Positions 41,625 to 42,809 of a stretch of DNA of 64,000 nt are shown in pieces. Both the position numbers and the translations under genes were made by a program. This stretch comes from an uncultured Candidatus Binatia bacterium (lineage in GTDB: Bacteria; Desulfobacterota; Binatia; Bin18), in the NCBI GenBank assembly GCA_965200965.1, contig OZ241744.1, positions 1,792,001-1,856,000 of the forward strand, written 5' to 3'. Below the pieces are notes generated by a model. That model had not been told where the DNA came from, did no database searches, and saw nothing but the letters and a program-made list of their open reading frames with translations. Within the stretch, counting starts at the first letter, position 1, and every line of letters starts with the position of its first letter.

Positions 41625-42809
41625 CTAGCAACGCAAACGCCGCGGCGACAGGCCAGCGACGGAAACGCCGAGCCGCGCCAGCGCTTGGGGGAGCGGCTGG
41701 CCGAGCAGGATGGCGCTGCACGCCTGACCCATTGCCGCCGCGGTCTGGATGCCGTAGCCGCCCTGGCCGGCCAGCCAGAAGAAGCCCGGGGCAGCAGGAT
41801 CAAAACCGCCAACCAGCTCGCCGTCGGCCACAAACGAGCGCAGGCCGGCCCAGGTCCGGGCCGGGCGACGGATGCTCAAACTGCTCACCGCCTCAATCCG
41901 GGCGATGCCGGTCGCAATGTCCAACTCTTCGGGCCGCACATCGTGGGGAACGGGAGCTCAGAAACCGCATCGGGCTCGGTGAGGACCTTCGGGCCGCACA
42001 TCGTGGGGAACGGTCGGGTCAGCATTGGCCGGCGAGCCGAGCAACAGGCCGGCCTCGGTCTTGAAGTAGAACGACTCGTCGGCCCCGACAACCGCCGGCC
42101 AAGCGTGGATATCCACCTGTTCGGGCGGGGCAAAGGTAAAGGCGCTGCGCCGTTTGGGGACCAGACCGAGCGGCCTGACCCCGGCCAGCCCGGCAATCAC
42201 GTCGCACCACGCCCCCGCGGCGTTGACCACACTCTCGGCCACAAAATCACCGGCCGGGGTCTCGACCCGCCAGCCGCCGGCCCGACGGCTCAGGCCGGTC
42301 ACTTCGGCCGAGGTAAGCACCTGGCCGCGGTTGCGACGAATGCCGCGCAAAAACCCCTGGTGCAAGCCATGCACATCAATATCGCTGGGGTCGGCCTCGT
42401 AGATGGCCCCGGCCAGAGCGTCGGCCCGCAGCACCGGCACCCGATCACGCGCCTCAGCCGGTGACAGCCGCACCGCCTCAGAGCCGACCTCACGCGCAAT
42501 GGCATACGCTCCGTCCAGCAGGAGGCGCTGGGCCTCGGCCCCGACCAGCAGCAGGCCGCGTGGGCTCAGGATAGGGGTAGCGGCAAAGCCGGGCGGCGGG
42601 TCTTCGTAGAACGGCCGGCTGCCGACCGTCAGCGCCCTGACCAGGGGCGGCCCGTAGGTTTCAATGAACATGGCCGCCGAGCGGCCGGTGGTGTGATGGC
42701 CCGGCTGTTCCTCACGTTCGAGGACCACCACCGAGGCGTGCTGCGAGAGCCAGTAGCCGACCGACGTACCGGCAATCCCGGCCCCAATAATGACAAAACG
42801 GCTGTCCAT
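41625..42809 (-). pseudogene. FAD-dependent oxidoreductase (DAO/glycine oxidase family) interrupted by a 60-bp insertion carrying TGA
   Basis: [40 protein letters not shown]; a single frame throughout, with a stop at 41958-41960 inside the insert. Confidence 0.88.
41927..42013 (-). repeat. 27-bp perfect direct repeat flanking a 33-bp unique insert (CRISPR-like repeat-spacer-repeat)
   Basis: Copies at 41927-41953 and 41987-42013 (minus strand CCGTTCCCCACGATGTGCGGCCCGAAG); insert at 41954-41986. Confidence 0.95.

Follow-up and report, generated by a model that had tools for sequence, protein, structure and literature searches.

A probable off-target type I-E spacer integration in a dauA-like gene of an uncultured bacterium

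A 60-bp insertion that interrupts a dauA-like gene in this uncultured bacterium is, with high probability, the product of an off-target spacer integration by the resident type I-E Cas1-Cas2. The window analyzed here is a stretch of 64,000 nucleotides (G000:C1:1792001-1856000) of a single-contig genome of 3,620,516 bp. The first-pass annotation of this DNA had proposed a natural ectopic I-E spacer acquisition that truncated a gene, and this reading is supported by the geometry of the insertion, a source flanked by an AAG motif, the presence of a type I-E system, and empty alleles at the same site. Off-target ("neo-CRISPR") spacer integration by the E. coli type I-E Cas1-Cas2 was reportedly described by Nivala, Shipman and Church in 2018. 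In the present case, the resident complex would have taken up a 33-nt chromosomal segment at an AAG PAM and inserted it where the dauA-like gene has a repeat-like stretch, generating a 27-bp duplication and an in-frame stop; such a scar would yield no crRNA and thereby escape self-targeting. The same process, acting through several resident systems, likely made 14 other sites in this genome.

The insertion in the dauA-like gene and its empty alleles

The perfect 27-bp duplication around a 33-mer reported in the first-pass annotation was confirmed, with 100% identity between the copies and a spacing of 60 (Table 1). Elsewhere in the 3.62-Mb genome the 27-mer is absent (next best match, 22/27), and the target is single copy in all nine orthologous loci (9/9). 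The insertion adds 60 bp in frame, and its TGA, also noticed earlier within what had been called a FAD oxidoreductase gene, leaves a PF01266 (DAO) gene as two ORFs, the N-terminal of which (283 aa) matches the D-arginine dehydrogenase DauA (3nyc, E 1.9e-93), suggesting a DauA-like enzyme. The gene is single copy, as no second dauA-like copy was found in the genome by tblastn, and four orthologues are open over 374-385 aa, compared with 283 aa here; the truncated enzyme is presumably dead. Directly downstream, on the minus strand (window 39248-41612), HsdR, a type I restriction subunit, is represented by two overlapping ORFs of 375 and 455 aa in different frames, and the hsdM frame is open.

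Table 1. Features of the two scars in the window (window coordinates)
Feature	Position	Strand	Remarks
First 27-bp copy of the target duplication	41987..42013	-	Original dauA-like coding sequence; putative leader-side repeat role; CC at 8-9, GG at 19-20
33-nt insert (putative ectopic spacer)	41954..41986	-	33/33 identity to G000:C1:1665370-1665402
Second 27-bp copy of the target duplication	41927..41953	-	Identical to first copy
In-frame TGA supplied by the insert	41958..41960	-	
Truncated N-terminal part, predicted DauA-like FAD-dependent D-amino-acid dehydrogenase	41958..42809	-	283 aa from ATG
Orphaned C-terminal part of the DauA-like gene	41625..41939	-	104-aa ORF from GTG within the second duplication copy
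Second scar, in dprA	50262..50370	+	37-bp duplication and 35-nt insert, in frame, period 72; 38 bp match exactly

In 41 genomes, a DNA search found 20 loci, and in all nine site-covering loci from other genomes that were aligned, the 27-mer is present once and the insert is missing (9/9), as had been expected of orthologues if the 60 bp were a later addition. Furthermore, four public runs were compared over window positions 41300-50900 as assembled contigs, not raw reads. Contigs of X1, which is possibly the source sample, and X2, from two studies, cover both insert junctions without a skip, and X5 and X7, which are conspecific, contain the empty allele, with a skip of exactly 60 in which 27 letters fit either side. 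X2 comes from a different study and represents a distinguishable strain, having 15 other letters in 8 kb and no scar in dprA. Since both junctions are present in X1 and X2 and the site is empty in X5, X7, and the orthologues, the allele is real and derived, and the insertion is therefore common to two distinguishable strains and absent in two. In place of the reads that the first-pass annotation called for, contigs assembled from public runs support both the filled and the empty allele. None of the contigs listed spans the insert completely and extends 31 letters beyond it at each end; such a break in the assembly graph is expected because the 33-mer is present twice in the genome. The runs containing this DNA include sponge metagenomes. 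Inside a dimethylformamidase-like gene, run X5 contains some 1,586 additional letters at window position 43101, probably a mobile element in that strain.

Source of the insert, resident systems, and the choice of target

The 33-mer was initially described as foreign, a description that has to be abandoned: it is chromosomal self DNA, with one other copy in the genome, identical over 33/33 positions and 169 kb away, where 3e-13 such second copies would be expected by chance. The match ends exactly at both insert ends, and AA lies directly 5' of the first G (...CCAA|G), the dinucleotide that had been predicted for a type I-E protospacer and that precedes 4.4% of positions (0.044). AAG is the type I-E PAM known from E. 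coli. The source lies inside a TonB-dependent receptor gene (894-aa ORF) and has no duplication around it. The origins considered earlier as contrary to spacer acquisition, the end of a multicopy IS or MITE and a copy of adjacent sequence, are not borne out, given that the insert has no terminal inverted repeats and no further copies (the genome holds two only, the second without a duplication) and that its source is so distant. The initial G had also been taken as a type I-E sign. The insert does start with G, but the 223 spacers of the I-E array start with C, T, G, and A in 82, 70, 65, and 6 cases, respectively; because they start mostly with C, T, or G, this base alone is little evidence and the preceding AA is the informative part. 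As in the array, it is the PAM-derived G end that adjoins the first repeat-like copy.

The genome has six cas1 loci, namely, those of types I-E, I-C, I-MYXAN, and III-B, a Cas9 locus, and a short-spacer locus, with array repeats of 28, 37 (38 if the variable last base is counted), 36, 37, 37, and 25 nt, respectively. The type I-E locus, whose existence had been named as a check, includes cas3, cse1, cse2, cas7, cas6e, cas1e (291.7 bits versus a cut-off of 215.6), and cas2e, cas5e not being among the ORFs scanned. A leader separates cas2e from an array of 224 repeats of 28 nt (G000:C1:2819954-2833583), in which 220 of the 223 spacers are 33 nt long. The non-I-E arrays have repeats of 25, 36, or 37 nt and spacers of 18-19, 30-31, or 33-46 nt, and the periods of the resident arrays are 43-44, 60-62, 67-68, and 70-83. 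No type I-F Cas1 was over the cut-off among the cas1 ORFs scanned, a set outside of which the II-C cas1 falls. The short-spacer array (G000:C1:678575-680250; 25-nt repeats, 18-19-nt spacers) lies beside a divergent cas1 with an in-frame TAG, of which the relative genome G007 has an open homologue. No effector gene was identified near this array, whose sizes recall the mini-integrases of types V-C and V-D.

The target shares 13/28 positions with the resident I-E repeat (p=0.23 versus random windows), and its resemblance is therefore not evidence alone. The test of whole-repeat likeness, in which 16 candidate targets were compared with the six resident repeats, was not significant here or generally, and no site stands out against the size-matched repeat with six repeats tested per site (best I-E p=0.03). 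Thus, of the likeness to the I-E repeat claimed in the first-pass annotation, the overall similarity is not significant, and what is shared is a pair of positioned anchors. In every I-E-sized target (5/5), as in the native repeat, CC occupies positions 8-9 and GG ends 7 nt short of the far end, a combination found at 0.8-0.9% of genome positions, and this holds for both the 27- and the 28-bp duplications. The joint probability is about 1e-9 for a motif chosen post hoc and with register freedom allowed for; three of the five sites had some such freedom and the dauA-like site none. The duplication is indeed one base below the I-E repeat (27 bp versus 28 nt), as had been pointed out, and its length recurs at two other sites in this genome and in G004, a different species. 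According to the available text of Goren 2016, two inverted-repeat (IR) motifs are essential in the E. coli I-E repeat, whereas the rest tolerates change; deleting 1 nt in the stretch up to IR2 yields 27-bp repeats in >97% of cases, the shorter ruler being dominant (PMC5039180). As the anchors lie 1 nt closer here, a 27-bp duplication is what the ruler data lead one to expect. The CC and GG may have been the anchors for docking, their spacing, shorter by 1 nt, accounting for a duplication of 27 instead of 28 bp, and the fit to the two-ruler model is by analogy only because the sites have no recognizable leader and their IR matches are partial.

The dauA-like site lies outside any CRISPR array, and its scar does not qualify as a functional array, with one spacer, no leader, and a weak hairpin (RNA folding at -4.6 kcal/mol, z -0.33, versus -15.4 kcal/mol for the array repeat). 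The scan of the leader-side flank found neither an IHF-like site nor an AT-rich leader before it. The IHF-site scan had no hit at any ectopic I-E site and a single 2-mismatch hit in the native leader. A promoter scan of window positions 41900-43000 was also negative, a result that is uninformative because the organism is GC rich.

The IHF-alpha of this genome (G000:C1:2470893-2471168; L209:188-469, minus strand) is altered in its DNA-binding arm, which is two codons longer and reads GRIPGKKPEET instead of the GRNPKTGET or GRNPQTGET of relatives; the protein scores below the family cut-off (98.6 bits versus 124.2 bits for G007). A third DNABII gene has GINP instead of GRNP. The altered arm might lower integration fidelity. 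An IHF defect as a required cause was rejected, since the arms of G007 and G004 are normal and scars are nevertheless present in both.

Scars elsewhere in the genome and in relatives

When the genome outside the six arrays was scanned for unique inserts between exact duplications of >=24 bp, 14 single sites and one mini-array target were obtained, in total 15 sites with 17 distinct inserts. Their periods are 60-61 (five sites), 68-78 (nine sites), and 45 (one site, doubtful). The last, 903342 (26+19), preserves the frame of a DUF3011 gene and was kept. Eight rows were dropped as coding tandem or longer imperfect repeats (1759710, 1760123, 2353896, 2360022, 2753050, 2754258, 2759671, and 2865668), one of which, 2360022, may be an older 37+41 scar, and 3449078 was rejected as a coding tandem repeat. 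An empty allele is available for 12 of the 15 sites, in relatives for ten (for 2173980 on a rough alignment), in three runs for dprA, and as a paralogue for the mini-array target; 589271, 1118450, and 2540592 have no alignable site in relatives.

The window's other scar lies in dprA (Table 1), and its size fits the type I-C array. Its insert has a self source near C1:1312100, preceded by TTC in the 37+35 register, TTC being the type I-C PAM. This scar is filled in X1 and empty in X2, X5, and X7. Additionally, an I-E-sized scar at C1:2790044 adds a stop codon to recX. At the orthologous recX site of the cas1e-positive G004, a 27-bp duplication in the same register surrounds a 33-nt insert of another sequence, and the site is empty in G007 and G006; since the two inserts differ and the relatives are empty, these are two independent hits. 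The G004 insert (L057) reads as an in-frame addition of 20 codons. Both recX and dprA are recombination-accessory genes. In the type III-B operon, the 3' end of cmr5 carries a 37+39 scar (C1:3359968) whose insert matches C1:876363 at 36/39 positions.

The mini-array (L016; C1:1495966-1496116 and C1:1498082-1498292) lies in duplicated intergenic segments and contains two and three spacers, and its target has an empty paralogue at C1:1500948. A further 33-nt spacer is present there in the conspecific runs X6 and X9, matching the chromosome at 33/33 positions after GA, and X3 has the loose ends of another. These strain-specific spacers point to repeated spacer uptake, and the I-E-sized mini-array is a candidate newborn array.

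The origin of the inserts separates the scars from the arrays. An exact chromosomal source was found for 3/7 I-E-sized ectopic inserts versus 4/223 array spacers (p=6e-4). Over all systems, 7/17 ectopic inserts (one at 36/39) versus 8/490 array spacers are self derived (p=7e-8), or 6/17 if only exact matches are counted (p=1e-6); for the other 10/17, no source was found in the genome. Besides the dauA-like insert, the three other self-derived I-E-sized ectopic spacers are flanked by AA|G, GA|G, and AT|C, so that for one of the four a 1-nt slip has to be assumed to obtain a preceding AA or GA. The four self-matching spacers of the I-E array have no AA at -2,-1 (crRNA orientation), compared with AAG for 2/3 of the ectopic ones. 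One of these array spacers targets C1:2069142-2069174, within the type I-MYXAN cas locus, also without AA in the crRNA orientation. Self spacers with a good PAM would be lethal in arrays and lost, and ectopic ones would survive by escaping crRNA processing; spacer age and primed acquisition could contribute to the contrast.

Two relatives were scanned for comparison. In the 1.2 of 3.6 Mb sampled from G007 (97% complete, no cas1e over the cut-off), seven rows lie outside arrays, of which six are scars after removal of one tandem row, with periods of 67-75 and none of 60 or 61. Four of the six are empty in G000. The contrast in 60/61-sized scars between G000 and G007 (5/15 versus 0/6) has the predicted direction and is not significant (p=0.26). 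In G006, with two cas1e genes and no other cas1 type seen, the same scan of 1.2 of 5.4 Mb found no scars. It follows that the scan is free of background and that no 36-37-bp scars occur where the matching systems are absent (p ~0.04 at the G000 rate). Since two cas1e genes coexist with zero scars (p 0.19), the presence of a type I-E system does not suffice.

Alternative explanations and known off-target integration

It is important to consider what argues against the type I-E reading, which is that the duplication measures 27 and not 28 bp, no leader precedes the site, the likeness to the repeat is weak, and the anchors were recognized post hoc. Part of this would equally suit a staggered break repaired with templated chromosomal filler, in which no Cas protein takes part and the CRISPR-like sizes arise by chance, as would the self origin of the insert. 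However, no microhomology was found and the source match stops exactly at the insert ends, next to an AAG PAM; the periods of the 15 sites (45, 60-61, and 68-78) match those of the resident arrays, 33-nt additions were repeated at one site, an independent 27+33 event struck an orthologous site, and G006 has no scars in 1.2 Mb. The agreement in size, PAM, and anchors largely refutes filler repair, which we consider very improbable. An artefact, either a chimeric read or a local misassembly, appears the most remote of the possibilities, even for a metagenome assembly with 5.74% contamination in which no single listed contig bridges the insert, given the junctions recovered in X1 and in the distinguishable strain of another study and a graph break that a duplicated 33-mer would produce anyway.

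Another integrase might also be held responsible, be it any of the remaining five Cas1 proteins, a type I-F system present transiently, or a casposase or transposase leaving its footprint. With six cas1 loci there is no shortage of enzymes, and the observed period is 60 compared with 61 for type I-E; type I-F, with 28+32, also gives a period of 60. Nevertheless, the match to the source pins the insert to 33 nt and the duplication to 27 bp, the repeat and spacer sizes of the remaining arrays differ, no I-F Cas1 passed the cut-off in the ORFs scanned, and the insert has neither terminal repeats nor further copies, so this explanation is highly unlikely as well. Integration by the resident type I-E Cas1-Cas2 is the reading that we retain. 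By its testable features, the event belongs to the off-target neo-CRISPR integrations, a placement that the data support, with catalysis by Cas1-Cas2 as a prediction from sequence.

More broadly, we lean towards the view that, in this sponge-associated lineage, CRISPR adaptation acts as a constant insertional mutagen, driven by several systems, and gives rise to new arrays. At least four Cas1-Cas2 complexes would write scars of 45-78 bp, knock out the dauA-like gene and recX, revisit a hotspot across species, and feed an ectopic mini-array, and the scars would record the natural prespacer pool (about 40% self versus <2% in arrays) and map the target rules of the integrases. If so, the recorded pool would be the true one, because scars are not selected through interference. 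The dauA-like case offers together an empty allele, an exact self protospacer with its PAM, a cognate system, polymorphism, and gene truncation. The scar set as a whole makes testable from sequence the miss rate of the integrase, the share of self DNA captured before lethal self-targeting purges the arrays, and the way in which new arrays begin.

The mechanism is already known from E. coli overproducing Cas1-Cas2, and the present case is a well-documented one from the wild. A search by title and the start of the abstract, with subscription literature mostly outside it, found no published genome-wide natural case. The available parts of the neo-CRISPR reports describe off-target integration in E. 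coli overproducing the type I-E Cas1-Cas2 (10.1101/148544, PMC7054753, PMC11788318), and one of them calls natural off-target integration unclear, with circumstantial natural evidence in two species (10.1101/148544). As far as these texts go, the likeness is close, comprising a spacer-sized insert and a repeat-sized duplication outside the array, type I-E, and the ability to seed an array. In contrast to the overproducing laboratory strain, the present case concerns a wild uncultured organism, in which a gene is truncated by a strain-polymorphic insertion with a 27-bp duplication and which also has scars that fit the sizes of several other systems, a hotspot hit in two species, and a strain-variable mini-array.

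Acquisition at the leader end of the resident I-E array shares with the scar the 33-nt spacer, the orientation of the PAM end, and the positions of CC and GG, and differs in its 28-nt repeat, its stronger hairpin, and the rarity of self spacers, which are without AA. The two-ruler experiments of Goren 2016, within what is available of them, resemble our case in that both IR motifs matter and a 1-nt-shorter distance to IR2 gives 27 bp; they used mutated repeats behind an intact leader, whereas no recognizable leader and only partial IR matches are found here (PMC5039180). Off-target integration in vitro and a role of IHF or HU in fidelity are also described in the portions available of PMC8047081 and PMC13769266. 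Finally, the "ectopic" in-array acquisition of S. thermophilus type II, as presented in the accessible text of PMC8047081, likewise takes place away from the leader-repeat junction, but there a true repeat within the array is used, and here it is unrelated coding DNA.
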